Assembly (NCBI GenBank): GCA_963800795.1
Contig: CAWDCJ010000004.1
Coordinates: 21,742 to 85,741 of the forward strand
Length of the DNA stretch: 64,000 bases
From: an uncultured Chloroflexia bacterium
GTDB taxonomy: Bacteria > Chloroflexota > Limnocylindria > Limnocylindrales > CSP1-4
Direction: 5' to 3'
This document shows positions 1 to 64,000 of this stretch, in pieces (the first letter of the stretch is position 1; each line of letters starts with the position of its first letter). Below the pieces are notes generated by a model. That model ran no database searches. It was given only the letters and a program-made list of their open reading frames with translations, and was not told the origin of the DNA. A program made the position numbers and the translations under genes.

Positions 1-321
1 GTTGTACTGGTCGAGGAGCGCCTGGACCTCGTGGACGCCGTCCATGACGTTGCCCTTGACGTCCTTGGCCGGGTCGAGCTGCGGCTCCTGGCTGAGGAAG
101 CCGACGGTGAAGCGCGGGGTCAGGCGTGCCTCGCCGGTGAACCCGTCGTCGAGGCCGGCCATGATCCGCAGCAGGCTCGACTTCCCCGCCCCGTTCGGGC
201 CGATGACCCCGATCTTGGCGCCCGGGAAGAACGAGATCGAGATGTCCTCGAGGACCGTCCGATCAGGCGGGTAGTGGCGGGCAAGCTTGTAGGTGCTGTA
301 GATGAATTCCGCTGGCATGGC
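1..321 (-). CDS. ettA: ABC-F ATPase EttA-like (energy-dependent translational throttle), N-terminal part; gene runs off window start
   Basis: Minus-strand translation from ATG 319-321 gives MPAEFIYSTYKLARHYPPDRTVLEDISISFFPGAKIGVIGPNGAGKSSLLRIMAGLDD..., matching the EttA N-terminus and Walker A GPNGAGKS. Not in ORF track because it is truncated by the window edge. Confidence 0.8.
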
Positions 322-388
322 CGCGCAAGCGTACCGGGCCGGAGCGACGCGTGGCGGCGCGCTTCCTTTGCCCTCTTGACGTTGCTGT

Positions 389-410
389 GATACAACCGTA
401 TGGTTGTATC
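389..410. promoter_or_regulatory. Inverted repeat GATACAACC-gtat-GGTTGTATC overlapping arsR start codon; candidate ArsR/SmtB autoregulatory operator
   Basis: Perfect 9-bp arms with 4-bp spacer read directly at 389-410. ATG of the ArsR-like gene is at 400 (alternative ATG at 412). ArsR/SmtB regulators typically bind imperfect 12-2-12-type inverted repeats at their own promoters. Confidence 0.45.
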
Positions 411-747
411 TATGGAGCACGACCTCAACGCGGACCGCCTCTTTGCCGCCCTGGCCGATGCCACCAGGCGCGACATCGTCCTGCGGGCACTCGCGGGCCG
501 CGAAGGCATCGCCGAGCTGGCCGGGCACTACCCGATGAGTTTCGCGGCGGTGCAGAAGCACGTCGCCGTGCTCGAGCGCGCCGGCCTCGTCACCAAGGAG
601 CGCATGGGCCGCCGCAAGGTGGTGCGCACCAACGTGGAGGCGCTCCAGCTGGCTCGAGGCCTTCTCGATCAGTACGAAGCGCTGTGGCGCGGCCGCGTCG
701 AGCGGATGACCAATCTCATCACCAGCACCGAGGGGGACGACAGATGA
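400..747 (+). CDS. ArsR/SmtB family transcriptional regulator
   Basis: 115 aa. The stretch LFAALADATRRDIVLRAL...AELAGHYPMSFAAVQKHVAVLERAGLV is the winged-HTH signature of the ArsR family. Stop overlaps the next start (ATGA at 744-747). Confidence 0.8.
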   Translation: MVVSMEHDLNADRLFAALADATRRDIVLRALAGREGIAELAGHYPMSFAAVQKHVAVLERAGLVTKERMGRRKVVRTNVEALQLARGLLDQYEALWRGRVERMTNLITSTEGDDR

Positions 748-1244
748 CTGTTACCGCTGTCCGGAAGGATCCGGCCGCCCTGGCCATGACGCTGACCGCC
801 GAGCTTGATGCGTCGCCGACGCGCGTCTGGCAGCTGTGGGCCGATCCGCGCCAGCTCGAGCGCTGGTGGGGTCCGCCCATGTATCCGGCGACCTTCACGG
901 CCCACGCCCTGGCTCCCGGCAGCCGAAGCGAGTACCACATGACCGGGCCGGGTGGCGACCAGCCGCGCGGCTTCTGGGACATCCTCGAGGCCGACCCACC
1001 TCGTCGACTCGCCTACCGCCATGGGTTCGCGCACGACGACGGGACGCCGAACCCGGACCTCCCCGGCATGACCGCCGTCGTGACGATCGAGGCGATCGAT
1101 GCCGCGCGAACGCGGATGTCGATCATGAGCAGCTTCCCGAGCGCGGAGGCGATGGAACGCCTTCTGGCCATGGGCATGGAGGAGGGCCTCACGCAGGCGG
1201 TCGGCCAGATCGACGGCATCCTCGCGGAAGGAGTCGCGGCATGA
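744..1244 (+). CDS. SRPBCC/AHSA1 (activator of Hsp90 ATPase homolog)-like domain protein
   Basis: MTVTAVRKDPAALAMTLTAELDASPTRVWQLWADPRQLERWWGP... is the typical AHSA1/SRPBCC fold signature (the W..W..P..ERWWGP motif). Translationally coupled to arsR, a common arsR-SRPBCC pair. High GC3. Confidence 0.7.
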   Translation: MTVTAVRKDPAALAMTLTAELDASPTRVWQLWADPRQLERWWGPPMYPATFTAHALAPGSRSEYHMTGPGGDQPRGFWDILEADPPRRLAYRHGFAHDDGTPNPDLPGMTAVVTIEAIDAARTRMSIMSSFPSAEAMERLLAMGMEEGLTQAVGQIDGILAEGVAA

Positions 1245-1335
1245 CCACGATGACCGAACCGGCGCCCCATCCCCTGGACGTTCGACGCCGACCGGCCCTC
1301 GCCTGATCAACCCTTGACGCGTGTTCGCGCCCGGG

Positions 1336-1740
1336 CTACCCCGCGATGACGCTGTCCACGCGGATGACCGGCGGCTGCTCGAAGTGCTTCTTGACCGCGC
1401 ACTGCTCGGCCGCGCGAACGACCGCGTCGGCGTACTTGTCGGGAAACCCCTTCGGCAGCTCGATCGTGACCTGGATGTCGCTCACCAGGTGGGTCGCCGG
1501 GTTGGTCCGCATCCGCTGGACGAGGCGAATGCCCTCCGTCGAGATCCCCCGCTGTCGGCAGAAGCCCAGCACGTAGATGCCCGCGCACGTCCCGATCGTG
1601 GAGAGGAACGTGGCGAACGGCGTCGGGGCCGAGCTGTCGCCACCGCCCGACGAGGGCTGGTCGGTGGGAACCACGAAGCCCCCGAAATGCGCGTCCACAC
1701 GCGCGCCTCCGGGGAAATCGATTGTCATCTCCATGGAACG
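1336..1740 (-). CDS. OsmC/Ohr family peroxiredoxin-like protein
   Basis: MEMTIDFPGGARVDAHFGGFVVPTDQP...PTPFATFLSTIGTCAGIYVLGFCRQRGI...VTIELP matches the OsmC family, including the two cysteines. The listed ORF extends further upstream, but the conserved protein begins at MEMT. Confidence 0.8.
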   Translation of the reverse strand, partial: RSMEMTIDFPGGARVDAHFGGFVVPTDQPSSGGGDSSAPTPFATFLSTIGTCAGIYVLGFCRQRGISTEGIRLVQRMRTNPATHLVSDIQVTIELPKGFPDKYADAVVRAAEQCAVKKHFEQPPVIRVDSVIAG

Positions 1741-2530: not shown

Positions 2531-2566
2531 CCATCGAGCGTCGTCCTCTCCCCCGTCGCGGAGGCT

Positions 2567-3128: not shown

Positions 3129-3310
3129 CGTCTCCCCCTTCGCGCGTGGCCCCTGCGTCCGCCAACGATAGCCCCACCGACCGACGGCGGCGCGCGCCGA
3201 CCTGCCGACGATCGGCGCCAGGCTCCCTTCACCTGGCCGAGGCCCGACCGAGTCGACATCGGCGGAGTCTGGGAAGATCCGCGCGTGAGAATCCCTCCCA
3301 TGGTCCCAGG

Positions 3311-4240: not shown

Positions 4241-4465
4241 AGTCGGCCGGATGCGCCGGATCGACCGGTGGTGATGTGGCTGCCGTGGCGCTCCCACGGA
4301 CTGTCATGACCGTCCGTCATCGCCGAGCGCGGCGAGCCCGTCGCCGAAGGACGCGAACGACCCGCGAACCGTCGCGCGAACCGCCGCGCGCCCTCGCGGT
4401 GCTACCCTGAGGTGCCCGAGCTGCCCTTCCGCGTGTTCGAGGCCCGCTCAGGATCGGATTGCACC

Positions 4466-5291: not shown

Positions 5292-5334
5292 GCCACAAGG
5301 CGATCGCGGGCGAGTCGCCGCGGCCCTGTCCGCC

Positions 5335-5732
5335 CTACGCGCCGCCGTCGTGTGCTCGGGCGGCCAGCCACGGAGCCGCCAGGCCGGCGCGGCGCTCCGA
5401 CGTGAGGAGATCCGCGGCGTGGACCGCCATGACCGCCCCTTCGATCACCTCGAGCGCGGCCTCGCCACCGGCCCGGTCGTCGGGCACGAGGTCATCGGAC
5501 TCCTCCACCACCGCGCCGAGCAGCGGGATCCGGTCCAGGAGCGGCCCAAGGACGTGCGTGAGATCACCGCGCCCATGCTCCGCGAGCACCATGTCGGCGA
5601 GCCGCAGCTCATCCCGGAGGCCGGGGTCCACGCAGCAGCGAGACGGGGCAGGTCGGCGATGGTCAGCGCATCCAGGGCGGCGGCCAGGCGGACGCGCGGA
5701 TCGTCATCCGCAGGAGTGGTCGGGTTCTGCAT
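5335..5732 (-). CDS. Hypothetical acidic protein, apparently split by a frameshift
   Basis: ATG 5730-5732 (MQNPTTPADDDPRVRLAAALDALTIADLPRLAAA) runs in one frame. The downstream 98-aa ORF 5335..5631 (DELRLADMVLAEHGRGDLTHVLGPLLDRIPLLGAVVEE...) is in the -1 frame with equally strong GC3. Junction near 5630-5640. Confidence 0.35.
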
Positions 5733-7341: not shown

Positions 7342-9406
7342 GGTTGCTCGGGGATCGCCGGCTCGGGCTCCGACTCAGCCGCCGCTTCGGGCGCGGGTTC
7401 CGCCGCTGACTCAGCCGCAGCTTCGGCCTCGGGTTCCGCCGCTGACTCAGCCGCAGCTTCGGCCTCGGGTTCCGCCGCGGGTTCCGCCGCTGACTCGGGC
7501 TCGGCCTCGGGCTCCGGCGCGGGCTCGGCCTCGGCCTCGGGCTCCGGCGCGGGCTCGGCCTCGGGCTCGGGCTCCACCGCCGACTCGGGCTCCGGCTCGG
7601 GCTCGGGCGCGGGCTCCGCTGCCGACTCGGGCTCGGCCTCGGGCGCGGGCTCCGTGGTCGGCCCCGACTCGAGTTCCGGAGGAGACTCGGGCTCGAGCCC
7701 CGGAGCCGCGCTGGCGTCGCTCTCGGAGACCGCATCACCGATCCGGTCCACGGACACCCAGCGCCGATCGACGACCAGGTGGAGGACGGTCGGACGTGAC
7801 GCCGCCAGGGCCGCCCGGAGCGCGGGCTCGAACGCGTCGTCGCGGTCCACCCTGACGCCGACCGCGCCATACCCTTCCCCGACCCGCACCCAGTCGACGG
7901 GGCCAAGGTCGGTTGCCACGGGCGCGAGGCCGCGCTGGACCTGGTGGTCATGGATCGTGCCGTAGCGCTGGTTGTCGAACACCAGCACCACCGGGTGGAC
8001 GCCGCTGCGGACCGCTGTCTCCAGCTCGGCAATCGACATCCCGGCCCCGCCATCACCAACCAGGGCCACGACCGGCCTCCCCGGGCCGGCGAGCGACGCT
8101 GCCACCGCGGCCGGGATAGCGAACCCCATCGCCCCGGCCGTCGTGCCGAGGAACGTACCCGGCCGGCGCAGGACGAGGCCCCGAGCAGCCCAGCCGCCGA
8201 AGTTGCCGGCATCCGTCGAGATGATCGTGTCCGGCGACAGGACGCGGTTCAGCGTCGCGATGACCCGGCCCGGGTGCACGCCCTCGCCGTCCCAGTCGTC
8301 GCGATCGACGCGGCGGGCGTCCTCGTAGGCAGCCCGGTCTCGCGCGGTGGCGGCGCGCCGCCGCTCCAGGCCGGCGAAGTCGAGGACCCCGGTGGCGAGG
8401 ATCCGGCGCGCGTCGCGCAGGAAGGTCCGCGCGTCGGACGCCAGGGCGAGGGTGGGTCCCGTGAGCCCGGGGCGCGTCCCCAGCGGCTCCACGTCCACGT
8501 GGGCCCAGCGGGTCCCCGGCGCTGGGATGGCATGCTCGTACGTCGCGATCTCGTTGAGGCGGCTGCCGATGACGAGGATCGCGTCCGCATCCTCCAGGCG
8601 CGACCGGACCGACGGCGCGGCGAAGTACCCGGTCATGCCCAGGTAGTGGGGATTGTCGTTGGGAAAGACGTCCGGACGGCGCCATGTCGCGATCACGGGC
8701 ACGTCGATGAGCGCCGACAGAGCGGACGAGGTCCGCCGTCGCGCGCGAACGCAGCACGCCGCCGCCGGCGAGGATCACGGGGCGTTCAGCGTCGAGCAGC
8801 AGGTGCAGGATGCGGCGGACATGAACCGGATCCGGCGGGGTCCGTGACGGACCGGGCAGCGGGCCGGGAGCCGCGGAGACGGGTGCGGCATCCACCTCCT
8901 CGTCGAGCAGGTCCTCCGGCAGCGAAAGCAGGACCGGGCCGGGTCGCCCGGCCGTCGCCCGCCTGAGCGCCTCGTCGATGGCCGCTGGCAGCGCGGCAAC
9001 GTCGCGGACCTCGCGCGCCCAGCGGCAGAACCCGCCCACGGTCGCCGCCAGGTCGGCCTCCTGGAACCCCTCCCGACCCCGGGACGCGCGCTTCACCTGG
9101 CCGACCAGGGCGATCACGGGAAGCGAGTCCGCGTAGGCCAGCGTGCAGCCCGATGGCCAGGTTCGCAGCGCCCACGGCCCGCGTCCCGAGGACAACGGCT
9201 GGACGGCCGCTGAGCGCGGCAGACGCCGCCGCCATGTACGCGGCGCCGCCCTCGTGACGGGTCGCGATGACCTGGATCCCGGCCCCGGCAAGACCGTCGA
9301 GGAGGGCGAGGAAGCTCTCGCCCGGCACGGTGTACGCGACGCGCACTCCGGCCGCGGCGAGGGCGTCGGCGATGAGGCGGCCGGCCGTTCGCGGTGTCCC
9401 GGTCAC
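7338..9406 (-). CDS. Thiamine-diphosphate-dependent enzyme (acetolactate-synthase-like large-subunit family) with ~150-aa acidic PE/AE-repeat C-terminal tail; two apparent 1-bp frameshifts
   Basis: N-terminal domain [29 protein letters not shown]...[44 protein letters not shown] is in frame 8786..9406. It continues [15 protein letters not shown]...[10 protein letters not shown] in frame 8053..9291 (shift near 9136-9142). It then continues [26 protein letters not shown]...[16 protein letters not shown]...LHLVVD in frame 7338..8702 (shift near 8716-8722). The tail is [22 protein letters not shown]... Confidence 0.75.
7345..7700. repeat. Degenerate tandem repeat (36-bp unit gctgactcagccgcagcttcggcctcgggttccgcc exact x2 at 7405-7476, degenerate copies around) encoding the acidic PE/AE tail
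   Basis: Direct reading of 7381-7700 shows the 36-bp unit at 7405-7440 and again at 7441-7476, flanked by related ggctcgggctccggcgcgggctcggcctc units. Confidence 0.7.
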
Positions 9407-10037: not shown

Positions 10038-10562
10038 TCACCCCGTTTCGCGGTCGCCCGATGCGATCGCCTCCGCGCGCTCGATGAGCAGCTCGAGCGC
10101 GGCGCGCGCGCTCGCTGCCTTGTTCGAGCCGCGGTCGCCGGGCCAGCTGAACCGCCGGAGCTCGACCCCGGCGGCATCTGCCACGGCCACGTACGTGAGG
10201 CCCACCGGCTTGCCCGCCGTCGCCCCGGACGGCCCGGCAATGCCGGTGACGGCAACGGCGAGGTCCGATCGAAGGCGTGCCCGTGCCCCCGACGCCATGG
10301 CGCTGGCGACCTGCGCGCTCACCGCCCCGTGCTGGCCGATCACGCTCGCCGACACGCCCAGGAGCGCCTCCTTGGCGTCGTCCGAATAGGCGACAACCCC
10401 GCCACGGAGATAGCCCGACGCGCCGGGCACGTCCGTCAGCGCGTCGCCGATGCGCCCGCCCGTGCAGGACTCGGCCGTCGCGACGGTGAGGCCGGCCGCC
10501 AGGCAGATCAGCTGGAGCCGTTCGGCGAGCGCGCGCAGGTCCGGCTCAGGCCACGCTCGCGC
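10038..10562 (-). CDS. CinA C-terminal domain protein / nicotinamide-nucleotide amidohydrolase PncC-like; no canonical start codon in frame
   Basis: ...LRALAERLQLICLAAGLTVATAESCTGGRIGDALTDVPGASGYLRGGVVAYSDDAKEALLGVSASVIGQHGAVS... is the PncC/CinA-C signature. The frame opens at the rodZ stop (10563-10565). There is no ATG/GTG/TTG before the conserved TAESCTGG. GTG 10428-10430 would truncate the domain. Confidence 0.7.
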   Translation of the reverse strand, partial: ARAWPEPDLRALAERLQLICLAAGLTVATAESCTGGRIGDALTDVPGASGYLRGGVVAYSDDAKEALLGVSASVIGQHGAVSAQVASAMASGARARLRSDLAVAVTGIAGPSGATAGKPVGLTYVAVADAAGVELRRFSWPGDRGSNKAASARAALELLIERAEAIASGDRETG

Positions 10563-11940
10563 TCACGTCGTCCGGTCCGTGCGCTTCGGCGGCGCCGGCG
10601 GCTGGAAGAGCCACGTCTCCGGCGAGCCACCCTTCCCCAGGGCACCCAGGCTCGTCCCGTTGAGGGTATAGAACGTCACCCCGGCGTTGCCCGTTCGAAC
10701 CTCGACGGACGTGGTGCCACTGAACGTGAGGGTCTGGCCGTCGTTGACGAGGAGCCCGCCGCTCCCGGTCGTCGGCGACACGATCGCCGTCGACCCAGAC
10801 CTTGAGCCAGGCCCGCCCACCCTTCACGTCCACGACGACGTTCACGCCCTGGTAGACGACGGTCACGCTGCGGGTCAGCGTGGTCGTCATGCCCTGGTCA
10901 TTCTTGGCGACGATCGAGATCACCCAGCGACCGGTTGTCAGGTCCAGGTTGGCCGCGAACGACCCATCGTCGGCGGGCGCGACCACGATCGGTGCGGGAG
11001 GCGCGGGCGTCGTCGTCGCCGAGGGCGCAGGCGCCTCGCCGGGCGCCTTGCCCGCGAACGCGGCGCTGATGTCCACGCTGGTCGCGTCGGTGGCGTCACC
11101 GGTCACGGGGATCGCCCCGTTCTGGAACGTGGCGCCGTCCGCGGGCGAGCCCACGGTCAAGGTCGGGGCGACCACCGGGTTGAACGGGACGGTGATCAGG
11201 AGCTCGACCGGGTGCTCGGCGGCCTTCCCGGTCTTCGGATCCACCGCGCTCACGTCGAACTGGTTCCTGCCCCGCCGGAGGTCCACCGTGGCCAGCCAGG
11301 TACCGTCGCCGCCCGCGGTGATGTTGAGCGGGTCGCGACCGGGAGCCGCGATGGTGACGAGGCCACCTGCGATGGTGAGCCCGCGCAGCGTGTACGTCGT
11401 CGCATCCTGTGCCACGTCCGTCACGGCAGTGGGCGGATCGACAACGCTCAGCGGCGGGGGCTCGGAGAAGCGGACCAGCTGGAAGCCGATGTAGGCGAGG
11501 ATCAGCACCACGCCCAGGGTCACGACGGCCGCCACCACGACCCCGGAAGTCAGCACCAACCCTTTCCGAGGCGCGATCAGCGGTCGCGGGACGACGATCA
11601 CCGGCTCGGGAGCATCCGCCGGCGCCTCGCGATGCCACTGGGCGACCGCGTCGTCCGGGTCGATCCCGAGGTACTGGGCGTAGTTGCGCAGGAAGCCGCG
11701 GACGTACACGCCACCCGGCAAGGACGCGTAGTCGCCGCGCTCGAGCGCCGCCAGGTACCCACGCCGGATCTTCGTCTCGCGCTCGGCGCGAAGAAGATCG
11801 ATGCCCTTGGCCTCGCGCGCCGCGACCAGTCGCTCGCCGAGCGGGTCGCCGCCCGCGGTCGCTCTCCGATCCGCGATCGGGTCGCGGTCGTGCTCGGGCC
11901 CCGCCGGGCGAGCATGGTTGCGCGTGGTCACCCGTCGTCC
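10563..11940 (-). CDS. rodZ: RodZ-like cytoskeleton protein (XRE-type HTH - TM - Ig-like region - DUF4115); 1-bp frameshift near 10793
   Basis: GTG ~11938-11940. LGERLVAAREAKGIDLLRAERETKIRRGYLAALERGDYASLPGGVYVRGFLRNYAQYLGIDP is the RodZ HTH. TM helix LVLTSGVVVAAVVTLGVVLILAYIGF. C-terminal WLKVWVDGD | VSPTTGSGGLLVNDGQTLTFSGTTSVEVRTGNAGVTFYTLNGTSLG is the DUF4115 motif, in the frame of ORF 10563..10820. Position after ftsK and before cinA matches the conserved order. Confidence 0.7.
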
Positions 11941-14285
11941 CCATCGTCGGCGTCGGGCGGGGCGACGACGCTGCTCGGCCTCGCGCCGCAACACCTGCCG
12001 CGCGTTCGAGCCGTCGAACGCCCCGATGTAACCCCGCGCCTCGAGCTGGTCGATGATCCGCGCCGCCCGGGCATACCCGATCTTGAGCCGCCGCTGCAGC
12101 AGCGACGCCGAGGCGCGGTCGTACTCCTGCACGACGCCCACGGCATCCCGCAGGAGCCGGTCCGCGTCGTCATCCGCGAGGTCGTCGACCGACCCGGTGG
12201 AGTCCTCCTCGTCCTCGATGATCCCCAGGTCGTAGTGGGGCTCAGCCTCGGCCCGCCAGTGGGCCGTGACCGCCCGGATCTCCCGGTCCGCCACGAAGAC
12301 GCCCTGCAGGCGGATGGGGCGCGGCAGGTCGGACGGCTGGAAGAGCATGTCGCCGCGACCGATGAGGTCCTCTGCGCCGGGCGCGTCCAGGATCGTCCGG
12401 GAGTCGATCTGGGAGGCCATGGCGAAGGCGATCCGGCTGGGGAAGTTGGCCTTGATCAGGCCCGTCACGACGTTGACCGATGGGCGCTGCGTGGCGAGGA
12501 CCAGGTGGATCCCGGTCGCGCGCGCCTTCTGGGCCAGGCGGACGATCGGGTCCTCCACGGTCCGGCCGTCGCGCATCATCAGGTCGGCCAGCTCGTCCAC
12601 GATGATCACGATATAGGGCAGCCGATCGGTGGGATCGGCCCGCGTCTCGTTGTACGAGTCGATGTTGCGGGCCGTGGCCCCGGCGAACTTCCGGAAGCGC
12701 ATCTCCATCTCGCTCACCGCCCACTTGAGGGCGGCGCGGGCGCGGTCGACCTCGGTGATGACGGGGACCAGGAGATGGGGCATGCCGTTGTAGTCGGCGA
12801 GCTCAACGCGCTTCGGGTCCACCAGGATGAGCCGGACCTCCTCCGGCGTCGCCCGCATGAGCAGGCTGGTGATGAGGGCATTGACCATGACGCTCTTGCC
12901 GGAGCCGGTGGCGCCCGCGATCAGCAGGTGCGGCATCTTCGCCAGGTCCGCCGCGCGGGCATGACCTGCCACGTCGCGTCCGAGGGCGAAGGCGATCTTC
13001 GACGGGATCGCGGCGACCTCGGGATCCTCCAGGATCCGCCGGATCGCGACCACGTTGAAGTCCATGTTGGGGATCTCGAGCCCCACCACCGTCTTGCCCG
13101 GGATCGGCGCCTCGATCCGGATCGTGCGGGCGGCAAGCGCCATCGCCAGATCATCCGCCAGCGCCTCGATGCGGCTGACCTTGATCGACGGGTCGGGCTC
13201 CACCTCGTATTGCGTCACGACGGGGCCGGCGTTCCAGCGCGTGACCCGGCTGGGGATGTTGAAGCTGGCGAGCTTGCCCTCGATGATCCTGGCGTTGCGC
13301 GCGTGGTCCATCCCGGCATTCGTCGTGCGCGGCGCCAGGTCCTCCAGCAGGGTCATCGGTGGGAGGCGGTATTCCCGCCGGACCGGCTCGGCGGCCAGGC
13401 CCGACCCGGGAGACCCCGAGCCGATGTCCGCGACGGGCACACGGGTCGCCCCGTTCACGGGGCTCGCGGCCCCGTCGTCCGGGAAGAGCGTCATCCGCTC
13501 CCCGCGAGTGGAGCCGGCGGTGGCCCGGCGAACACGGACGAGACCTGCGCCGGCTGCTCCAGCGGCGACGGGATATCCGGCCGCGAGATCTCGCGTCCGT
13601 TCCTGCCGTCCCGGAGCGTGGCCTTGGCGCCCGGCGGCGACGCGCCCGGCCCGTCCGTTCGAGGGCGACGGGCCTGTTCGATGGCGGCTGCGCCGGCGCT
13701 CGCGGCGGGAGCGGCGAGGGCGCTGCCGAGGTCGCGGGCGCCGCGCCCGAACGGCGCCAGCAGCTCCCGGACCGGCCGGTCCAGGGCGACCACGAGCCCG
13801 GCGAGCAGGATCCCGATGAACACGATGAAGGCGCCGAGCGGGCTCACGAGGCCGTCGACGAACGTGGCGAGCGACGACCCGATGCGGCCACCCGAACGGC
13901 CATCCAGCACGCCGGCCTTGGCGAGGAGCGCGATGAGGGCGAGCGCCGCGAGATACGCGACGGCGGAGCCCAGCAAGGTCCGGGGCCAGCCCGCACGCAC
14001 ACCCCCCGACCGCTCCAGCCAGAACCCGAGGCCGATCAGGACGAGCGGAAGCAGCCAGCGGCCGGACCCGAACCATGGCGCGATGACGTTCAGGATCCAG
14101 TCCGTCAGCGCTCCCCGGCCCTGGAACACGAGCCCGATGAGGATCACGGCCCCCAGCACCATCAGGACGACCGCCACGAGCGAGCGCGTGACGTCGGGTG
14201 AGAGGCGCGGCATCCGCGGGACCGACCCTCGGCGGGTGGCCCGCGTCCGCGACCGGGCGGCAGGGGGACGTCGGCGCGTCGCCAC
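11937..14285 (-). CDS. ftsK: DNA translocase FtsK/SpoIIIE; frameshifted near 13493 and again near its 3' end
   Basis: 4-TM N-terminal domain in ORF 13491..14285. Motor domain lies in the long 10546..16245 frame: PHLLIAGATGSGKSVMVNALITSLL (Walker A), ...IIVDELADLM, LVLATQRPSVNVVTGLIKANFPSRIAFAMAS, and the gamma domain LLQRRLKIGYARAARIIDQLE. In the raw frame it reads through into rodZ. A +2-frame TGA overlaps the rodZ GTG (GTGA), suggesting a terminal frameshift. Confidence 0.8.
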
Positions 14286-15969: not shown

Positions 15970-15973
15970 GGCC

Positions 15974-26790: not shown

Positions 26791-26799
26791 GGTGCCACC

Positions 26800-32643: not shown

Positions 32644-32663
32644 TCGCGCACCGGTCGACCGGA

Positions 32664-50442: not shown

Positions 50443-51491
50443 GCCGGCGTCCCTGCCGCGGGCGGCCGGGCCTGCGAACCCTCGGCGTCGACCGTCGGGT
50501 CAGGCGCCCCGGGCAAGGAGGACGCCCCTGGGCGGCGGAAGGTCTCGCCGATCAGCTCCGGCAACCGCACCCGCGCCGCGGCCGCTCCTACCGCGACCGC
50601 GTGCATGATCATCCGCCGCTTGGCGCGACCGTGGGTGATGATCACGGTCCCCCGCACGCCGAGCAGTGGCGAGCCGCCCAGGACCTCGTAGTCGAAGGTG
50701 GCCTGGATCCGGCGAATCCGGGCCGCATCAGGAGGTACGCGAGGCGGCCGCGCAGGCCCGCCTGGAACTCCTTCCGCCAGAGGTCGAAGATGAAGCCGGA
50801 CAGGCCCTCGAAGAACTTGATCGTGACGTTGCCCAGGACCGCGTCGCACACCACGACGTCGGCCGGATGGTGGACGAGGTCCTTGCCCTCCACGTTGCCC
50901 GTGAAGTTCAGCCCGGACGCGTCGAGGAGGGTGGTGGCGCCCTGGATGCGCGCGTCCCCCTTGCCTTTCTCTTCGCCGATCGAGAGGAGCGCGACCCGTG
51001 GCCGCGCCACGCCAAGCGCGCGCTCGGCGAAGAGCGAACCCATGTGCGCGTACTGGACCAGGTTCTCGGCTGTCGAGTCCGGGTTCGCCCCGATGTCGAG
51101 GAGGACGAAGGGGCCGGAGTCGGTGATGAGCTGGATCGCCAGGGCCGGCCGGTCAACCCCGGGGATGCGGCCGAGCCGGAGCACCGCGGCTGCCATCGCC
51201 GGCGCCGGTGTGCCCGGCCGTGATCACCGCGTCCGCGCGGCCACGCTTCACGAGGTCGCAGGCCACCAGGATCGAGGCGTCTCGCTTCTCCCGCAGCGCG
51301 AGGGCCGGGTGCTCATGCATCTCGATCACCTGCCCGGCCGCCTCGAGCGAGACGTTCGGCGGGAGCGCGGCGCCTGCCAGCCCGCGAATCCGCTCCGGGT
51401 CGCCGACAAGGATGAGCTCGTCATCCGGGAACTCCGCCGCGTACAGCAGGGCTCCTGCCACGACCTCGTCGGGCGCGTGGTCGCCCCCCAT
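50439..51491 (-). CDS. plsX: Phosphate acyltransferase PlsX; two frameshifts
   Basis: MGGDHAPDEVVAGAL...VITAGHTGA (51153..51491). Then AMAAAVLRLGRIPGVDRPALA...LLDIGANPD (50642..51196). Then FDYEVLGGSPLLGVRGTVIITHGRAKRR (50439..50849). Confidence 0.8.
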
Positions 51492-51603
51492 CGCATCGAT
51501 CGCGAGGCGGACCTTCCGGGCTGCGCTCGACGCCGCGGACGGTCGTGAGATCCATCGGCGGACTCCGTGGTTGGGCGCCGCGGACGCGGCGCCTGTCCGG
51601 CCG

Positions 51604-51974: not shown

Positions 51975-52490
51975 GACCGGTCCCGTCGGGGTGGCCGTGA
52001 GGGCCCAGGTTCCGATCGGCGCCGCAGACCGGGCACAGGCCGCGGCAGTCCGGGCGGCAGAGCGGGACGATCGGTGCGGCAAGCTGGACGCCCTCGCGCA
52101 CCGGCGTCTCGAGGTCCATCTCGTGATGGTCGGTGAGGCGCGCCACCTCGGGCTCGATGGCCCGATTGAGCGGCTGACCGGTCGCGATGTCGAGAGCGGG
52201 CATGAACTCCTCGTCGAGATCGAGCTGCCAAGGGCACCACCACGGGCGCCAGGCAGCGCCCACAGGTGTCCGCCAGCGCGGTCGACACGTGCCCGGTCAC
52301 GATCGAGGCCCCGGTTCGTCCGCACCGCGCGCACGCTGCCGGTCACCGGCTCGGCCAGGACCAGGTCGCCCCCGAGATCGATCACGGCGCCCGTGAAGCT
52401 GTAGTCGCGGAATGCGCCGCGAGGCTCGCCGAGAAGCCCCGCGACGTTGAACAGGAGCGGCTGCTCGTCAGGCTCGAAGGTCACCGCGCG
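51975..52490 (-). CDS. yceD: YceD/DUF177 family protein; frameshifted
   Basis: AVTFEPDEQPLLFNVAGLLGEP...VIDLGGDLVLAEPVTGSV (ORF 51924..52670). Then LDLDEEFMPALDIATGQPLNRAIEPE...PLCRPDCRGLCPVCGADRN (ORF 51604..52263). Conserved position before rpmF. Boundaries approximate. Confidence 0.65.
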
Positions 52491-53001
52491 GGGCCGCGAT
52501 CGGCGGGCGCGGCGTCGGGCTCCTCTCGTCGTACGGCTCAGCGACGGCCGCGGCTTCCTCCGGGACATTCCGCTCGTCGAGCATCTCGATCCCGCGCCGG
52601 ATGCTCTGCAGCGCCTTGACGATCTCGCCCTCGAGATGGACCAGGACGTCCGCGGCATACTCGTCGGCACCGCGCCGGATGTCGGCGGCCTCGGCGAGCG
52701 CGGCCTCCACGATCCCGCGCCCTTCGGCTTCCGCGGACTCGGTCAGGCCGCGCTCGTCGATCAGGAACGCGGCCTGTTCCTGCGCCTTGGCGACGATCCG
52801 CTCGGACTCCTGCTGGGCCCGCTCGAGGATCCGCTCGCCCTCTGCGTTGATGCGCCGGGCGGACTGGACCTCCTCCGGCACTGCGTGGCGCAGCTCGTCG
52901 ACGAGGTCCAGGGCAGCGGCCTGGTCGACGACGACGTTCGAGGTGAGGGGAAGCTTCCTCCCGTTGGCGATCATCGCCTCGAGGCGCTCGACGAAGAACA
53001 T
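52468..53001 (-). CDS. SepIVA/Rv2927c-like DivIVA-family coiled-coil protein (putative septation factor)
   Basis: RKLPLTSNVVVDQAAALDLVDELRHAVPEEVQSAR ... ADEYAADVLVHLEGEIVKALQSIRRG parallels the N- and C-terminal blocks of mycobacterial SepIVA as I recall them. Conserved position upstream of yceD in Actinobacteria. Confidence 0.55.
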   Translation of the reverse strand: MFFVERLEAMIANGRKLPLTSNVVVDQAAALDLVDELRHAVPEEVQSARRINAEGERILERAQQESERIVAKAQEQAAFLIDERGLTESAEAEGRGIVEAALAEAADIRRGADEYAADVLVHLEGEIVKALQSIRRGIEMLDERNVPEEAAAVAEPYDERSPTPRPPIAAPRGDLRA

Positions 53002-53577: not shown

Positions 53578-53599
53578 CACATGCTCCGCCTCAGGCGCC

Positions 53600-54190
53600 G
53601 CCGGGCGGTGGCACGTCCTCCGCCGGGGCGCGAACGTAGGAGACGACGATCGTCTCGCCGAACCTGCGTTCCCGGGTCGATCGTAGCAGCCCGACGGCCG
53701 GCGGCGGCGGGACGCTTCCCGAAGCCCGTGGCGATCACGAGCGCACCGCGACCGAGCGGCGCATCCGGCCCCCCGAGCTCGCGCAGGCAAGCGTCCCTGA
53801 CCTCGACGTCCGCGTAGGGTGGGTCGAGGATGACGATGCCGAACGGGCCGTCGGCGCGCGCATGCGATCGCAGGTAGGCCACCGCATCCCCCGCACGACG
53901 CGCGCCCGGCCGGCGACGTCGGCCCGTCGGAGGTTCTCCCGGATCACGCGACAGGTCGCCGCGTCGCGTTCCACGAGGATCGCCCGGGCGGCGCCTCGGG
54001 ACAGCGCCTCGATGGCGGCCGCGCCGCTCCCGGCGCAGAGGTCGAGGACGTTCGAGTCCGCCAGCACCGGCTCCAGTGAGCCGAAGATGGCCTGCTTGAC
54101 CCGGTCGGCAAGCGGCCGCGTCCCGGGGCCCGGGGCGGCCAGCCGGACTCCGCGGGCCGACCCGGCGATGACCCGCCCGGCGTCGGCCAT
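53600..54190 (-). CDS. rsmD: 16S rRNA (guanine966-N2)-methyltransferase RsmD; frameshifted
   Basis: VIAGSARGVRLAAPGPGTRPLADRVKQAIFGSLE...VLDLCAGSGAAAIEALSRGAARAILVE, then DGPFGIVILDPPYAD in ORF 53577..53882. Confidence 0.7.
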
Positions 54191-54193
54191 CGA

Positions 54194-56454
54194 CTAGGCT
54201 CCGGTCGCCGGCTCGCCGGCCGCCACGTCGCGCAACCAGCCGAGGTCCATCTCCCGCGCGAGCGCGGCGCCTCTCCCGGCGACGCCGCCGTCTGCGAGCA
54301 GCAGCGCCTCCGCATGGCGTCGGGCAGCGACCGCGAGCTCGCGGTGATCCGCTCGGGCCAGCGTGGCCACCCGCAGCCGCGGCAGCCCATGCTGCGCGTA
54401 GCCCAGGACGTCGCCCTCTCGCCGCTGTTCGAAGTCGACCTCCGCGAGGGCAAAGCCGTCGTCCAGCCGCGCGACCGCGGCCAGGCGGACCTGCTCCGGC
54501 CCGACCGGCTCGATCTCGCCGCGCTCGAGCGCGGCGGCCTGGCGCTCGTCGGACGGAAGCCGGTCACTGACCAGGACGCACCAGCCCTGGTCGGTGGCGC
54601 GTCCCACGCGGCCGCGGAGCTGGTGGAGCTGGGCCAGCCCGAAGCGGTCCGCGCCCTCGATCACCATGACGCTCGCCGCCGGGACATCCACCCCGACCTC
54701 GACCACGGTCGTGCCGACCAGCACGTCGACAAGGCCATCCCGGAAGCGCGCCATGGTGGCGTCACGTTCGGCGGGTCGCAGGCGGCCGTGCACGAGCCCG
54801 ACGACGAGCTGTCGCTGCAGGCCGGCTGTCGCGAGCCGCTCGGGCGCGTTCAGCAGCGTGCGCAGGCGCGCCGCCTCGGCCTCCGCCCCCGCCACGTCGT
54901 CGGGTGCATCCGCGGCCGCCCCGTCGGCCTCGTCGATATGCGGAACCACCACGAACGTCTGCCTGCCCGCCGCCGCTTCGCGCGCCACGAACGTCCACAG
55001 TCGATCCAGGTGGTCGGGATGGCGCAGCCCGGTGCGGATCGGCAGGCGGCCGGTCGGCGCGGTGCGCAGGTCGGTCACGTCCAGGTCCGCATACAGCACC
55101 TGCCCGATCGTGCGCGGGATCGGCGTCGCGGTCATGAGAAGCACGTGGGCGGCCCCGCCCCGGGTCTTGGCCTCCAGCGCGCCGCGCTGTTCCACGCCGA
55201 ACCGGTGCTGCTCGTCCACCACGACCAGGCCGAGGCGGGCATAGGCGACGCGCTCCGAGAACAGGGCGTGCGTCCCCACGACCACCTGCGCGCGTCCGTC
55301 GGCCAGCGCCTCCAGGACGCGGCGCGATTCCGGACCGGCAAGCGAGCCGGTCAGGAGCTCCACGCTGATCCCGAGCGGCCGAAGGAAGTCGTCAAGGGTC
55401 ACCGCGTGCTGGCGCGCCAGCAGGTCGGTGGGGGCCAGCAGCGCGCCCTGGACGCCGGCACCCGCCGCGAGCGCCAGGGCGTAGGCCGCGACCGCGGTCT
55501 TGCCCGACCCGACGTCGCCCTGCAGCAGCCGCAGCATCGGATGCGCGCCGCGGACGTCGTCGCGGACAGCGTCCATCGCGCGCTCCTGGTCGCCCGTGAG
55601 CTCGACCGCGCGACCGAGCCGACCGGCCAGGGCATCGGCGAGCGCGCGCCGGACGCGTGCGTCCTGCGTCGGGAGGCGTCGTGATCGAGACGGAGGCCGC
55701 GACCGCCCGCTCGCGACGTCGGCCGACCATCCCCACCTGCAGCGCCAGAAGCTCGTCGAAGGCAAGGCGCCGGAGGGCGGCATCGCGCCGCTCGAAGTCA
55801 TCCGGGAAGTGAACCTGCGCGAGCGCTTCCCCGATCCCGACCAGCCCCATGTCGCGCCGGATGCTGTCGGGCAGGTACTCCGGGTAGGGCGGCAGCCGAT
55901 CGAGGGCAGCGCGGATGGCCGCCCGAAGCGTCCGGATCGGCAGGCCTGCCGTCAGGCTGTAGACAGGAACGATCCGGCCCACGTGGAGCAGGTCGCCGTC
56001 GGGCGGCTGGAAGGCCGGGTTGTCGAGCAGGACGCTCGCGCCGCGCCTCTTGAGCTTGCCGGAGAAGAGCAGCTCATCGCCCTCGCGGAGTCGCCGCTCA
56101 ACGAACTGCCGGCCGTACCACTGGGCCTCTGCCGTGCCGGTCCCATCCGTCAGGTCGGCAGTCACGACGCGGGTGCCGCGGCGGGCGGTGCGTCCGGCCC
56201 GGACTCTCGTGACGGTGGCGCGCGTGCTCACGATCGTGTCCGGCGCCACGAAGCGAAGCGCGTGCAACGGGTAAGAGGACCCGCAGGTCGTCGTAGCGGC
56301 GCGGCAGCCAGAGGAGCAGATCGCGCACGCTGCGCAGCCCGATCCGGGGCCCGACCCGCTTGAGCACGCTGGCGCCAGGAAGCCCGCTCGCCGACAGCGC
56401 AACGCCGAACGGGTCCGGCGGCGAGGTCGCGGGGGTGGGCGTCGCGGTCCCCAC
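54194..56454 (-). CDS. recG: ATP-dependent DNA helicase RecG; at least three frameshifts
   Basis: N-terminus in ORF 56098..56454. Wedge domain in 55392..56402. Helicase core LLQGDVGSGKTAVAA...VVVDEQHRFG...LLMTATPIPRT...QLRGRVGR in 54194..55801. Confidence 0.8.
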
Positions 56455-56462: not shown

Positions 56463-58120
56463 CTACTCCGCGCTGATGAGGTAGCGATAGTGCGGCTGGA
56501 GGCCCGTCCTCACCTCGACATCATCGAGGGCCGGCCAGCGGGCGCGGATCTTGCGGGCCACGGCTTCCGCCTCGGCGAGGCTCGCATCGACGCCGTACCA
56601 CAGCGTGACCAGGCCGAACCCCGCCCGGAATGAGCCGATCCCCTCCAGGATCGTGGTCTCCTGGTCGTCCCCCACGGCCAGCAGCCCGTCGTCGGGGTCC
56701 AGTGCCATCGTCTGGCCCAGGCGGACCTGCCGGCCTCCGACCATGGCGTCCCGAACCGCGGCCGTGACGAGCAGGGTCTGGATCTCGCGGCTCGCTGCGA
56801 GCATCCGCTCCGCGTTGCCGCTCGCGCCGTCCGCGACCTGGAGCGCCAGCAGCGCCGCCAGGCCCTCCGCGGCATTCCGGGTCGGCACGACGCGGGTGGG
56901 CCGGTCGGACATCTCGGCCGCCTGCCCGGCGGCCAGCTTCACGTTGGGGTTGTTGGGCAGAATGAGGATCTCGTCGGCCGGAGATCGGCGGATCGCGGCG
57001 AGGATCTCGCCCGCGCTCGGGTTCTCCGCCTGGCCGCCGCGGACGATCGTCACGGCGACCTCGCCACCGAGCGCGGCCTCCTCGAAGTACGGGGCGAACC
57101 CATCGCCGGGCACGACCGCGATGATCCCCAGGGGTGACCGGACGGCGTCCGGTTCGGGGGCGTCACCCTCCGGCGGGTCCGCCGGCACGGCGCACTCGCT
57201 TTCCACCGCCGTTCGCGCCCTCGCGGACCTCCCTGGCCTGGTGGTCCAGGTCGACGACGGTCGCGTTCACGATCCGGCCGAGGCGGAGCGCGTGGCGGAC
57301 CACCAGGTCGGGGCGCCCGCTGTGCACGTGCACCTTGGCCACCTTGGCGTCGCCCGCCACGTTGACCGACTCGCCCGTCCGAACGAGATACGCGGTGATC
57401 CGGTCCAGGTCCAGGAGCTTGCCCGGAAAGGGACGGATCAGGTAGACGGTCTCGTAGCCATGCCCGGTCTCGCCAAGGGCGATCCCGGCGGGGATCGGAC
57501 CCGGCGCCGCCTGGACGTGGCGGACAGCGGCCGGCTCGTCCCCGCGCAGGAAATGGAGCGCTCCCTCGAGGAGACGGACCAGGCCGGCCCCGCCGGAATC
57601 GACCACACCCGCGTCGCGAAGCACGGGCAACAGGCTCGGCGTCCGTTCGAGGGACTTCTCGGCCGCGTCCGTGGCCCCGGCAAGGACGACGCCGATGTCG
57701 TTCTCCCGCTCCGCCGCGGCGACGGCCGCCGCCGCGGCCTCGCGGATCACGGTGAGCATCGTGCCCTCGACCGGCCGGGGGACCGCGCCATACGCCGCCG
57801 TGCTCGCCAGCGCGAGGGCATGGGCGAGGTCAAGGCCATTGAAGCGTCGCTTGCCGGCGAATCCCTCCGCGAGCCCCCGCACGATCTGACTGAGGATCAC
57901 CCCCGAGTTGCCCCGGGCGCCGAAGAGGGCGCCCTCCCGAAGTCGCTCGGCGACGCCCTCCACGCTCGTCTCGTCCCGCACGTACCGGAGCATCTCGGTG
58001 CAGGTCGTGAACATGTTCGAGCCGGTGTCGCCGTCGGGAACCGGGAAGACGTTGAGGGCGTTGATCTCGTCGACGTGGCGTTCGAGGTTTGCCACCGCGG
58101 CTCGCACGGCCTCGAGGAGG
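56463..58120 (-). CDS. yloV: DAK2-domain fusion protein YloV (DegV-like)
   Basis: INALNVFPVPDGDTGSNM...GARGNSGVILSQI in ORF 57163..58392, and a DegV-like C-terminal half in 56463..57206. Conserved asp23-yloV pair. Confidence 0.7.
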
Positions 58121-58150
58121 CCGGCGCCGTCGCAGGCGATTCGGACCACG

Positions 58151-59517: not shown

Positions 59518-59521
59518 GAGG

Positions 59522-61899: not shown

Positions 61900-61909
61900 C
61901 CGGGGCCGA

Positions 61910-62867
61910 TTATCCCACCCGCGAGCCGAGCAGCCCGGGCCGGCCTCGCACGAACGTGGCGGCGTCCATGCGACGCCCGCCGGCCGGCTGGAGCTCGAGC
62001 AGCAGGAGCCGGCCGTCGGCGGTCGCCAGCGCCAAGCCGGAGCCGCCGTGGCGGACCAGCCGCCCGGGTACGTCGCCGGGCTCGCTGGGCCCGACGCCGG
62101 CCTCGAGAACCACGACCCGCCCGGTCGACGCCTCCAGGAATGTCCCCGGCCATGGACGAAGCGCTCGGACCTGGCGCGCGAGCAGCGCGGCCGGTCGGCC
62201 TGGGTCCAGGCGCCCGTCGTCGCGCCGGAAGGGCCGGGTCATGCTCGCCCCTTCCGGCGATTGCGGCAGCGCCGGGAGCGAGCCTTCGAGCCATGGCCCC
62301 AACGCGCGCCCGAGCAGGTCCGCGGCGACCTTCGCCAGGCGTGCCTCCAGCCCCGGCGCATCCTCGTCGCCCGCCAGCCTGAGGGCCTCCACGGCCAGAA
62401 TCGGGCCCGTGTCCAGCCCCGCGTCCATCCGGAAGAGGGTCACGCCCGTCTCTGCGTCCCCGTCCAGGATGGCCGCCGGGATCGGCGTCGCCCCACGGTG
62501 GCGCGGAAGAAGGGACGGGTGCAGGTTGAGGATGCCGTGCCGGGGAATCTCCAGCATCGCCGGGGGGACCAGCTTCCCGTAGTCGGCCAGGATGCCGAGC
62601 TCAGGGCGAAGCGCGGCAACCTCCGCGACGGTCTCCGGGTCGCGCAACCGCGCGGGGGCAAGCACCGGCAGGCCAAGCATCCCCGCGCGCTCTCCCACCG
62701 GGGTCGCCAGCAGGGTCGCTCGCCGGCCGGCCGGTCGCGGCGGCGTGGTCACGACCGCGACCAGGGCAACGCGCGCCTCGCCGGCGAGCGCCTCGAGCAC
62801 CGGAACGGCGAACGCCCCGGAGCCGAAGAAGATCGCCCGGGCGGGCTCAGCCGCGGGAGGCCGCCTT
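61910..62867 (-). CDS. fmt: Methionyl-tRNA formyltransferase; start codon unclear
   Basis: RAIFFGSGAFAVPVLEAL...HGILNLHPSLLPRHRGATPI... No ATG/GTG/TTG between the def stop and the conserved N-terminus in this frame. Confidence 0.8.
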
Positions 62868-63407
62868 CGCTCTCTCCGGGTCGATGCCGCGCTGCTCCAG
62901 CGCCGCATCGGCGGCCCGGTCCTGCTCGTCGTCCATGCCACCGCGCCCGACCGGGATCAGCTCGTCCGGCGACGAGAGGTAGTCGACGTAGAGCTTCCCC
63001 TGCAGGTGGTCCAGCTCGTGCTGGAAGGCGCGGCCGAGAAAACCGGCGCCCGTGATCTTGAACTTCTTCCCGACGCGGTTCTGGGCCACGACCCAGACCT
63101 TCTCCTTTCGCGTGACGTAGGCCACGTAACCCGGGATCGACAGGCAGCCTTCCAGGTCGCGGTCCTCGCCGTCGGCGCGGACGATGCGCGGGTTCACGAG
63201 CTCGAAGAGGCGATCCTCCACCTCGACCACCGCGACGTTCAGGGCCTCGCCGATCTGCGGGGCCGCAAGGCCGACGCCCGGCGCGTGGCGCATGGTCTCC
63301 GTCAGGTCGTCGATCAACCCGTGCAGGAACTTGTTGAAGCTGTCCACGGGCTGGCCGCGCAGCCGGAGCCGCGGGTCGCCGAGCGTGAGGATCGGAAGAA
63401 CGCTCAT
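62847..63407 (-). CDS. def: Peptide deformylase
   Basis: GVGLAAPQIG...EGCLSIPG...QHELDHLQG (three Def motifs). Confidence 0.9.
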   Translation of the reverse strand: MSVLPILTLGDPRLRLRGQPVDSFNKFLHGLIDDLTETMRHAPGVGLAAPQIGEALNVAVVEVEDRLFELVNPRIVRADGEDRDLEGCLSIPGYVAYVTRKEKVWVVAQNRVGKKFKITGAGFLGRAFQHELDHLQGKLYVDYLSSPDELIPVGRGGMDDEQDRAADAALEQRGIDPERAKAASRG

Positions 63408-63482
63408 GGCCCGAGTATACGAGAGGTGTCGGTTTCGGCCAGCATCTCCGTGAGCGGCCTGCCCGGTGCCCCGGGCCGGATG

Positions 63483-63882
63483 TCAGGCCCCAGTGGCCTC
63501 GTCATCCGTCGGCGGGGTCTCCGCGGGCGGCTCCGCGCCGGGGGCCCCCGGCTCGTCCCCATCAGCCCGATGGCGGAGATCCTCGGCGAAGCGACGCGAT
63601 CGACCCGCGACGCGCGCGCCGACCTCTTCCGTCTTCAGCGCCGCGCGCTTGGCGAGGGGACCCGCCCGGTCTCCCGCGACGGCGGCCAGCTCGGCCGCCT
63701 TCGCGGCCACGTCCCGGGCAACCGGGCCGGCGTGGGCGGCCACCTGGTCGATCATCTGCTGGAGCTGGGCGAGCCACTCGCGAGCCTGCGACGCAGCGGT
63801 GTGCTCGTCAGGGGCGGCGCCTTCGTCGGGAGGGGGCTCATCGGCTGCGGGCCCCATGGGCGGGAGCTGCTCGTCGGTCATC
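63483..63882 (-). CDS. Hypothetical acidic protein
   Basis: MTDEQLPPMGPAADEPPPDE...AREWLAQLQQMIDQVAAHAG. Start chosen at the internal ATG. No family recognised. Confidence 0.35.
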
Positions 63883-64000
63883 GCATATCTCCTTACGGCT
63901 GGTCCCTGAATTCTCGTCGCGGGACCTGGTCTGGCCAAGTGCCGTCGGTACTCTCGTGTCCCGGGGCAGCGAGCGCGTCGATCAGAGGAGGCTCTCCGGG

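Follow-up and report, generated by a model that had tools for sequence, protein, structure and literature searches.

Residual insertions and deletions (indels) in the consensus are a well-described problem of metagenome-assembled genomes (MAGs) built from long reads only. Bins from R10.4 nanopore reads with less than about 40-fold coverage still need polishing with short reads, as consensus indels frameshift the gene calls (PMC9262707). The Microflora Danica (MFD) long-read MAGs, from the same group, were built from nanopore reads only, by Flye assembly and a single round of Medaka polishing; when their authors checked for nanopore-associated errors, some lower-coverage MAGs were found to have a reduced coding density (PMC12313526). 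The present analysis concerns a 64-kb stretch of contig CAWDCJ010000004.1 (assembly GCA_963800795.1), here called the window, from an uncultured Chloroflexota bacterium of soil or sediment. The window is a conserved housekeeping block in which 35 frame-breaking indels lie in 19 of about 68 genes. It is most likely an instance of the problem just described, with an atypical profile (insertion-biased and context-independent), and its indels are very probably consensus errors of the assembly and not the marks of dying genes.

The likeness to the residual indels of nanopore-only MAGs (PMC9262707, PMC12313526) covers several features. The indels are nearly all one base long, break the frame, are private to one assembly, vanish in independent or short-read assemblies, and leave gene calls fragmented or fused; the closest relatives of the window are themselves such MAGs, several of them with the same defect. 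Unlike the published account, which centres on homopolymer indels, the window is dominated by insertions, and identical neighbouring bases are no commoner than chance at the insertion sites.

With an overall G+C content of 72% (range 68-80%), the window holds 258 open reading frames (ORFs) of at least 100 amino acids (aa) that overlap in six frames, so that ORF lists alone prove nothing; the G+C content at the codon positions (GC1 and GC3 for the first and third position) was used instead. A hidden Markov model (HMM) of GC3 phase with seven states (six coding phases and non-coding) gave segments with a GC3 of 0.82-0.92 and many same-strand phase changes in the middle of genes, with no stop codon at the junction. 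GC3 was high on both sides, as the initial annotation had described, and in-frame translations run straight over the junctions, e.g. in RNase J, where GDFKFDH is followed directly by HPVDG at about 15449. In a 121-nucleotide (nt) out-of-phase stretch of pnp the alternative frame encodes the ExoII-ExoIII part of a DEDDh exonuclease. The sites were located by aligning intact orthologues from syntenic contigs with tblastn, followed by blastn gaps common to relatives and by Pfam coverage. For every affected gene the orthologue aligned piecewise to two to four window frames, the pieces adjoining one another in the query and reaching 80-99% identity on either side of the junction. In the isochorismatase gene, for example, profile positions 1-153 of the Pfam family are covered only when two frames are joined, whereas the C-terminal frame alone covers 19-153.

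The census comprises 29 insertions (28 of one base and one of two) and six deletions, each of one base, or one indel per 1.83 kb (Table 1). The pervasive frame switches of one base in conserved genes that the initial annotation reported, at an estimated one per 1-2 kb, are thus borne out, and so is its view of them as a quality problem. Most of the sites it listed lie within 25 nt of located indels. Its second sites in dxr and smc were displaced, the true positions being 30831-30833 and 45671-45678. Three sites, not two, break plsX, and recG has two rather than three or more. It gave two correct sites in nusA and missed the third (26855-26858), as well as the sites at 5619-5621, 36731 and 52525. 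The gap was seen against every covering relative (4/4 to 7/7) at 15445, 19311, 19434, 27006, 27738, 30225, 30831, 31779, 31937 and 32279.

Further gaps were examined and dropped as gene-breaking: those at 27947, 28079 and 28108 lie upstream of nusA, those at 35397, 51600, 53039 and 59010 are intergenic, and those at 4796 and 4805 fall in the variable N-terminus of a YbaK-like gene. Gaps at 7536 and 7712 belong to the low-complexity tail of the thiamine diphosphate (ThDP) enzyme, the one at 8865 to a divergent stretch with a net change of 3n, and those at 22041-22115 and 24026 to repeat variation of 3n length. Plus-strand HMM segments within smc (45685-47286) are a composition artefact of a coiled-coil region with 80% G+C.

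All 35 indels are peculiar to the window: none recurs in the related genomes, of which up to seven were compared. Over 30.1-64 kb of the window a three-way comparison was made with assembly A, an independent assembly (ENA ERZ25039477 contig_56946; loci L091 and L092) that is 98.4-98.8% identical to the window, and with assembly B, the MFD02416 MAG (L001, L088, L093 and L094; 92-95% identical), as outgroup. In this region 22 private indels of 1-2 nt were counted in the window and about 17 private single-base indels in A, with none common to both. All 22 window indels are absent from A as well as from the MFD02416 MAG, and the remaining 13 are absent from two to seven relatives. Window and A differ by only one cluster of gaps of 3n length, in the low-complexity tail of rimM, so one-base indels far outnumber 3n indels. 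The private indels of A split its FakA, RecG, SMC and FtsY, and in L092 they join DUF3352 and S16 into a fusion of 693 aa; the CdsA, Dxr, YceD, RsmD and PlsX of A are intact.

Selection on the broken genes is undiminished. With the indels taken out in silico, the 8,634 codons of the 19 genes are free of internal stops. The ratio of nonsynonymous (pN) to synonymous (pS) differences past the first frameshift, measured against three references, is 0.16, 0.16 and 0.11, and in intact genes 0.17, 0.09 and 0.20. The 372 coding substitutions between the window and A give a pS of 0.0305 and a pN of 0.0061 (pN/pS 0.20). A population that purges four of five amino-acid changes cannot also fix about 40 frameshifts in core genes, and the indels must therefore have arisen after the biology, in sequencing or assembly. 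All 22 indels polarised in the three-way region lie in coding sequence. Since about 90% of the window is coding, this is what is expected of unselected events, and the opposite of what selection would leave. In the window as a whole, nusA, dxr, cdsA, ftsK and smc are among the genes broken.

Control assemblies point the same way. The same HMM found 11 frameshift-like junctions in the 22-kb infB region of the window vs 1-2 in six assemblies with short-read-style names. By tblastn the syntenic 22 kb shows seven frame switches in the window vs none in seven assemblies with contig names in the style of MEGAHIT, SPAdes or IDBA. Among ten MFD MAGs the count ranges from 0 to 8, with switches in five (L014, 8; L015, 6; L004, 4; L011, 4; L001, 1), so that only the nanopore-only MFD MAGs and the window carry them. 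Single switches near NusA in three loci, obtained with L003 as reference, were set aside, being due to an over-long start call of the L003 nusA.

From these observations we infer a low-coverage, nanopore-only Flye and Medaka metagenome assembly of the MFD long-read type as the cause. The window likely shares the origin of the MFD nanopore-only MAGs, since it was deposited at NCBI and ENA as they were, has them as its nearest relatives and shares their error profile. The consensus of the window carries about one uncorrected one-base indel per 1.8 kb, placed regardless of gene function or sequence context and biased to extra bases, and these indels put 19 live housekeeping genes out of frame. 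At 72% G+C few stop codons occur in any frame, so shifted frames often run on and ORF callers give fused or chimeric ORFs plus fragments. Loci L004, L011, L014, L015 and L090, like L091 and L092, represent sister long-read assemblies with private one-base indels of their own, the Mur ligase being split in L090. Broken or fused products of these sister assemblies are already found in public protein clusters (e.g. P0377), and a 779-aa RlmN-Rpe protein (P0198) may be a further fusion, as a candidate only.

Several observations weigh against this reading. Insertions outnumber deletions 29:6, with no preference for homopolymers, which differs from classical nanopore homopolymer deletions. The sites are mildly clustered (coefficient of variation of the spacing 1.29, P = 0.024), with four in cdsA, three each in nusA, plsX and yceD, and none over stretches of 7-9 kb, and purely uniform noise does not explain this. 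Sites between 14 and 36 kb lie in segments more divergent from relatives (0.12-0.16 vs a background of 0.06-0.10 at the 100-nt scale). The short-read status of the control assemblies is taken from their contig names only, and the platform of the window is itself deduced from its nearest relatives and the error profile they have in common.

The sequence context of the indels does not agree with the initial annotation, which had placed most sites in short G/C homopolymers. With A as near-identical reference, 6 of 18 insertions (33%) adjoin an identical base vs 52% expected for random insertions in this sequence, and 2 of 18 (11%) fall in runs of at least three vs 21% expected. Many are a T, C or G between two unlike bases, as in GAAG[T]CGG, GAT[C]GAG and CTGC[G]TCGG. 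Only four of the six deletions lie in runs (G5, C5, C6 and TT), e.g. at 5621 (G5 to G4), at 13504 (a C run) and at 53893 (C6 to C5); the classical homopolymer picture of nanopore error thus fits only the rarer deletions and not the set as a whole. At the C run of 53891-53893 three long-read assemblies (the window, L088 and L091) all differ, the versions being C5, C6, and C4 followed by GC, and this run looks intrinsically hard for the consensus caller. A motif shared by the 33 insertion sites of the window and A was sought; once corrected for multiple testing, none of the 3-mers and 4-mers is enriched, and nothing stands out in the dinucleotides at the junctions. This argues against a methylation motif as the cause. 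Assembly A is insertion-biased as well, with 15 insertions to two deletions.

The clustering could come from local drops in depth or from collapsed strain variation. The latter, taken as the general explanation, would mean that reads of near-identical strains were merged and that indels arose where the haplotypes differ, and not mainly from low coverage or basecalling noise; the indels would still be non-biological. At least three close populations exist, represented by the window, A and B, and both the mild clustering and the greater divergence of the 14-36 kb segments, seen against L001 and L003, fit such a collapse. Between 50 and 64 kb, however, divergence near the sites shows no excess (0.042-0.050 vs 0.051), nor is there an excess of mismatches within 5 nt. 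Strain collapse is improbable as the main source, though it keeps a chance that deserves mention.

A slimmer chance, amounting to very little, is that a minority of the indels are real segregating frameshift alleles caught by the consensus or, on the technical side, that the insertion-biased, context-free signature of the two assemblies reflects an undescribed systematic failure of long-read consensus on low-abundance genomes with 72% G+C. The best candidates for real alleles might be the compensating pairs in PNPase and RsmD, where the ORFs stay open and 41 and about 61 codons, respectively, would be recoded.

Genuine pseudogenisation, i.e., a decaying genome in which frameshift mutations inactivate many genes, is barely credible. 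Pseudogene-rich decaying genomes are known from bacteria such as Mycobacterium leprae and recent endosymbionts, and the window resembles them in its high share of frameshifted genes; many genes are broken, and the indels are truly present in the deposited sequence. Unlike such genomes, however, the window has no nonsense mutations, no relaxed selection and no lesions in common with its 98.4-98.8% identical relative, and indispensable genes are broken as often as others. The affected core functions include nusA, dxr, cdsA, rseP, ftsK, smc, rnj and plsX. The lesion mix of pseudogenes (nonsense, frameshift, deletion) is not seen, with 35 frameshifts and no nonsense codon, and pN/pS past the shifts is no different from that in intact genes. 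The near-identical assembly shows none of the 22 indels testable there and has a different private set of its own, and the preponderance of one-base over 3n indels is likewise at odds with decay. Insertion sequence (IS) elements and gene remnants are absent.

Recoding, by which programmed ribosomal frameshifting or transcriptional slippage would restore the frames so that the genes are expressed as written, has practically no chance of being correct. Programmed frameshifts such as those of prfB (+1) and dnaX (-1) are conserved among related genomes and accompanied by slippery or stimulatory motifs; the window shares with them the one-base change of frame within a conserved gene, whereas none of its sites is conserved and no motif is common to them. 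Nothing specific speaks for recoding beyond the compensating pairs in PNPase (19311, 19434) and rsmD (53708, 53893), which leave a long ORF uninterrupted. Relatives are unshifted at all of these sites, all orthologues are single-frame, slippery sequences are lacking, and there are no long homopolymers to support slippage. When the T at 19311 of the PNPase gene is taken out and a base is put back at 19434, the Pfam RNase_T score rises by 26 bits, from 72.1 to 98.4. Equally remote is the proposal that there are no frameshifts and that the long overlapping six-frame ORFs of a G+C-rich genome, among them a 1200-aa shadow ORF on the plus strand, misled the initial annotation, as orthologues align to two or three window frames with high identity on both sides of each junction and nucleotide alignments pinpoint the base gained or lost.

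Table 1. Frame-breaking indels of the window and the main artefactual ORF. Strand is that of the gene; q, residues of the tblastn query; L numbers, syntenic loci; A and B, assemblies A and B. The fourth column gives the approximate site or statement of the initial annotation.
Feature	Position	Strand	Initial annotation	Evidence
+1 insertion, isochorismatase-family gene (2567-3128)	3041	-	~3040	tblastn, L094 orthologue: q1-29 frame -3 to 3042, q30-186 frame -1 from 3040; blastn gap
-1 deletion (G5 to G4), hypothetical 131-135 aa gene (5332-5732)	5619..5621	-		gap vs L089, L090, L094; tblastn frame -3 to -2 at 5625/5619
+1 insertion, ThDP (TPP) enzyme gene (7338-9406)	8720..8721	-	~8718	gap vs L089, L090, L094; tblastn frame -2 to -3 at 8722/8720
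+1 insertion, ThDP (TPP) enzyme gene	9138..9141	-	~9139	gap vs L089, L090, L094; tblastn frame -1 to -2
+1 insertion, RodZ-like gene (10566-11931)	10781..10784	-	~10793	tblastn, L094 RodZ: q1-382 frame -2 to 10786, q383-455 frame -3 from 10784; blastn gaps
+1 insertion, 3' end of ftsK	11977	-	3' end of ftsK	gap vs L089, L090, L094
-1 deletion (C run), ftsK (11977-14213)	13503..13504	-	~13493	gap vs L089, L090, L094; tblastn frame -3 to -2
+1 insertion, RNase J gene (rnj, 14289-15969), within GDFKFDHTPVDG motif	15445..15448	-	~15445	gap vs 6/6 relatives; tblastn q1-175 frame -2, q175-560 frame -3, 99% identity both sides
+1 insertion, PNPase gene (pnp, 17876-20455), first of compensating pair 123 nt apart	19311	-	one of two in pnp	gap vs 6/6 relatives
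-1 deletion, PNPase gene, second of compensating pair	19433..19434	-	one of two in pnp	gap vs 6/6 relatives
+1 insertion, near 3' end of nusA (about 26790-27935)	26855..26858	-		tblastn, L003 NusA: q356-406 frame -2, q407-428 frame -3; gap vs L001, L003, L012
+1 insertion, nusA	27006	-	~27000	gap vs 6/6 relatives; tblastn frame -1 to -2
+1 insertion, nusA	27738..27743	-	~27735	gap vs 6/6 relatives; tblastn frame -3 to -1
+1 insertion, rseP (M50 protease, 29395-30547)	30225	-	~30222	gap vs 7/7 relatives and near-identical L092; tblastn q3-107 frame -1, q108-384 frame -2
+1 insertion, dxr (30562-31757)	30831..30833	-	~30950 (displaced)	gap vs 7/7 relatives and L092; tblastn frame -1 to -2
+1 insertion, dxr, exact base ambiguous in range	31317..31332	-	~31315 (here ~31330)	gap vs 7/7 relatives and L092; tblastn frame -3 to -1
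+1 insertion, cdsA (about 31770-32654)	31779..31781	-	one of about four in cdsA (here 31780)	gap vs all relatives and L092, whose CdsA is intact at 292 aa
+1 insertion, cdsA	31937	-	one of about four in cdsA	gap vs 7/7 relatives and L092
+1 insertion, cdsA	32279	-	one of about four in cdsA	gap vs 7/7 relatives and L092
+2 insertion, cdsA, position ambiguous in range	32557..32567	-	one of about four in cdsA	two-base gap vs 6/7 relatives and L092
+1 insertion, yraN/UPF0102 gene (about 36587-36986)	36731	-		gap vs L092, L093; tblastn frame -3 to -1 between 36705 and 36730
+1 insertion, smc (44864-48582)	45671..45678	-	~45880 (displaced)	gap vs L092, L093; three-frame tblastn, frame change near q935-939
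+1 insertion, smc	46013	-	~46015	gap vs L092, L093; tblastn frame change near q845-850
-1 deletion, plsX (about 50451-51555)	50716..50718	-	plsX named	gap vs L088, L091/L092, L093; tblastn frame -1 to -3
+1 insertion, plsX	51199..51202	-	plsX named	gap vs A and B; tblastn frame -3 to -1
+1 insertion, plsX codon 12	51518..51521	-	plsX named	gap vs A and B; tblastn frame -2 to -3
+1 insertion, yceD (DUF177, 51927-52484)	51975..51980	-	yceD named	gap vs A and B
+1 insertion, yceD	52228..52229	-	yceD named	gap vs A and B; tblastn in three frames
+1 insertion, yceD	52304..52305	-	yceD named	gap vs A and B
-1 deletion, near 3' end of hypothetical 173-aa gene (52468-53001)	52525..52526	-		gap vs A and B; tblastn match ends at q162/173
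+1 insertion, rsmD (53594-54190), compensating pair ~185 nt apart	53708..53712	-	rsmD named	gap vs A and B; protein identity down to 71% over out-of-frame stretch
-1 deletion (C run), rsmD, second of compensating pair	53891..53893	-	rsmD named	gap vs A and B
+1 insertion, recG (54197-56454)	55667..55668	-	recG named	gap vs A and B; tblastn frame -3 to -1
+1 insertion, recG	56274..56275	-	recG named	gap vs L087, L088, L091; tblastn q1-60 frame -2, q61-282 frame -3
+1 insertion, Dak2/FakA (yloV) gene (56466-58149)	57216..57220	-	yloV named	gap vs L087, L088, L091; tblastn, L087: q3-322 frame -2, q323-573 frame -3
Artefactual 1899-aa ORF: RNase J N-terminus, out-of-frame read-through, FtsK C-terminus, RodZ-like N-terminus	10546..16245	-	artefactual ORF	ORF list and codon-position GC

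The damage to annotation is plainest in the 1899-aa ORF, which the initial annotation rightly called an artefact. It keeps to a single frame, which is the genuine coding frame of the RNase J N-terminus at 15446-15969 (GC3 0.93) and of the FtsK C-terminus and the RodZ-like gene at 10786-13503 (GC3 0.92), and it is out of frame in 13505-15445 (GC3 0.48, GC1 0.94) and in 10546-10783; the out-of-frame GC3 is 0.48-0.65. The reported read-through of ftsK into rodZ was also confirmed, as the insertion at 11977 abolishes the stop codon of ftsK, which then runs on in frame into the RodZ-like gene; in relatives the stop of the one and the start of the other overlap by 4 nt in different frames. The 1200-aa ORF, which had likewise been attributed to the indels, is an antisense shadow ORF (GC1 0.84, GC3 0.76) that an error-free sequence would have as well. 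Shadow ORFs of high-GC genomes account for this ORF and for shifted frames that stay open over hundreds of codons. They arise without sequence error, and in the window they only amplify the damage done by the indels.

Nearly all genes of the window are on the minus strand, and their names were taken from the gene tables of syntenic relatives. The order is ettA (partial), a small accessory region, Mur ligase, ThDP enzyme, yajQ, cinA, the RodZ-like gene, ftsK, rnj, udg, asd, pnp, rpsO, ribF, truB, nrnA, rbfA, infB, nusA, a 421-aa gene (probably ispG), rseP, dxr, cdsA, uppS, frr, pyrH, tsf, rpsB, yraN, rnhB, rplS, trmD, rimM, a KH-domain gene, rpsP, DUF3352, ffh, ftsY, smc, rnc, acpP, nusB, asp23, plsX, rpmF, yceD, a hypothetical gene, coaD, rsmD, recG, fakA/yloV, asp23, rpmB, dtd, rpe, rlmN, fmt and def. 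The closest genomes in an InfB scan are from uncultured Chloroflexota and carry the label Candidatus Limnocylindrales or 'uncultured Chloroflexia'. Among species representatives the MAG MFD02416.bin.1.133 (L001) is nearest, a relative with a DNA identity of 92-96% and a best InfB segment of 100%.

In the accessory region (2530-4470, compared with 13002-18385 of L094) the gene content truly differs from that of the MFD02416 MAG. The window is without the esterase and the 395-aa hypothetical gene that L094 has between a 96-aa gene and EamA, and without the M20 peptidase that L094 has between the isochorismatase and a glycolipid-binding gene; this is ordinary accessory-region variation. The C-terminal tail of the ThDP (acetolactate-synthase-like) enzyme (7338-7720, minus strand) is of low complexity, rich in Pro, Glu and Ala, and differs in length among relatives by blocks of 11-18 nt; its antisense strand resembles an Arg/Gly-rich ORF. 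The gene 3' of ftsK (10566-11931, minus strand) encodes a RodZ-like protein of 455-466 aa with HTH_25, a transmembrane stretch, a weak RodZ_C match and a faint Glucodextran_B match. The ribulose-phosphate 3-epimerase (59528-60517, minus strand) has 331 aa, about 110 aa above the usual size, and its C-terminal extension is kept in L087, L088 and L091, in whose gene tables it has no Pfam match.

The polynucleotide phosphorylase (PNPase) of the window (859 aa) contains a complete inserted 3'-5' exonuclease domain of the RNase_T/DEDDh type (Pfam residues 253-405; insert at about 19090-19780). The insert, of about 231 residues, takes the place of the short all-alpha linker that joins the two RNase PH cores and has about 74 residues in solved PNPases. 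Solved PNPases align only to residues 4-224 and 456-852, and none has the insert. Its motifs DVETTG, GHSIGFD and HRALPDAE are intact, and it is most similar to the exonuclease domains of PolC and DinG. It is present in all 15 Limnocylindrales-like loci (77-95% identity) and in a divergent 864-aa homologue of the same architecture (P0483, domain 54% identical), and absent from the fetched PNPases of Paenibacillus, Actinomycetota, Myxococcota and others, whose spacers measure 78-106 aa vs 235 aa. A quick full-text literature search found no description of a PNPase with an inserted DEDDh domain, and the insert may merit separate study.

The frame breaks reflect no real biological feature, and their detection is a correct, useful and ordinary data-quality warning. 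The 35 listed sites can be corrected directly; homopolymer-aware polishing would miss most of these errors. ORF-based annotation of the contig and of its sister MAGs will leave about 28% of the genes split or fused. Conserved marker genes will be under-counted, and chimeric or truncated proteins will be added to public protein collections, as exemplified by the many fragment-length cluster representatives of the PNPase insert. Claims of gene loss or of pseudogenes in this lineage that rest on such MAGs would be wrong.

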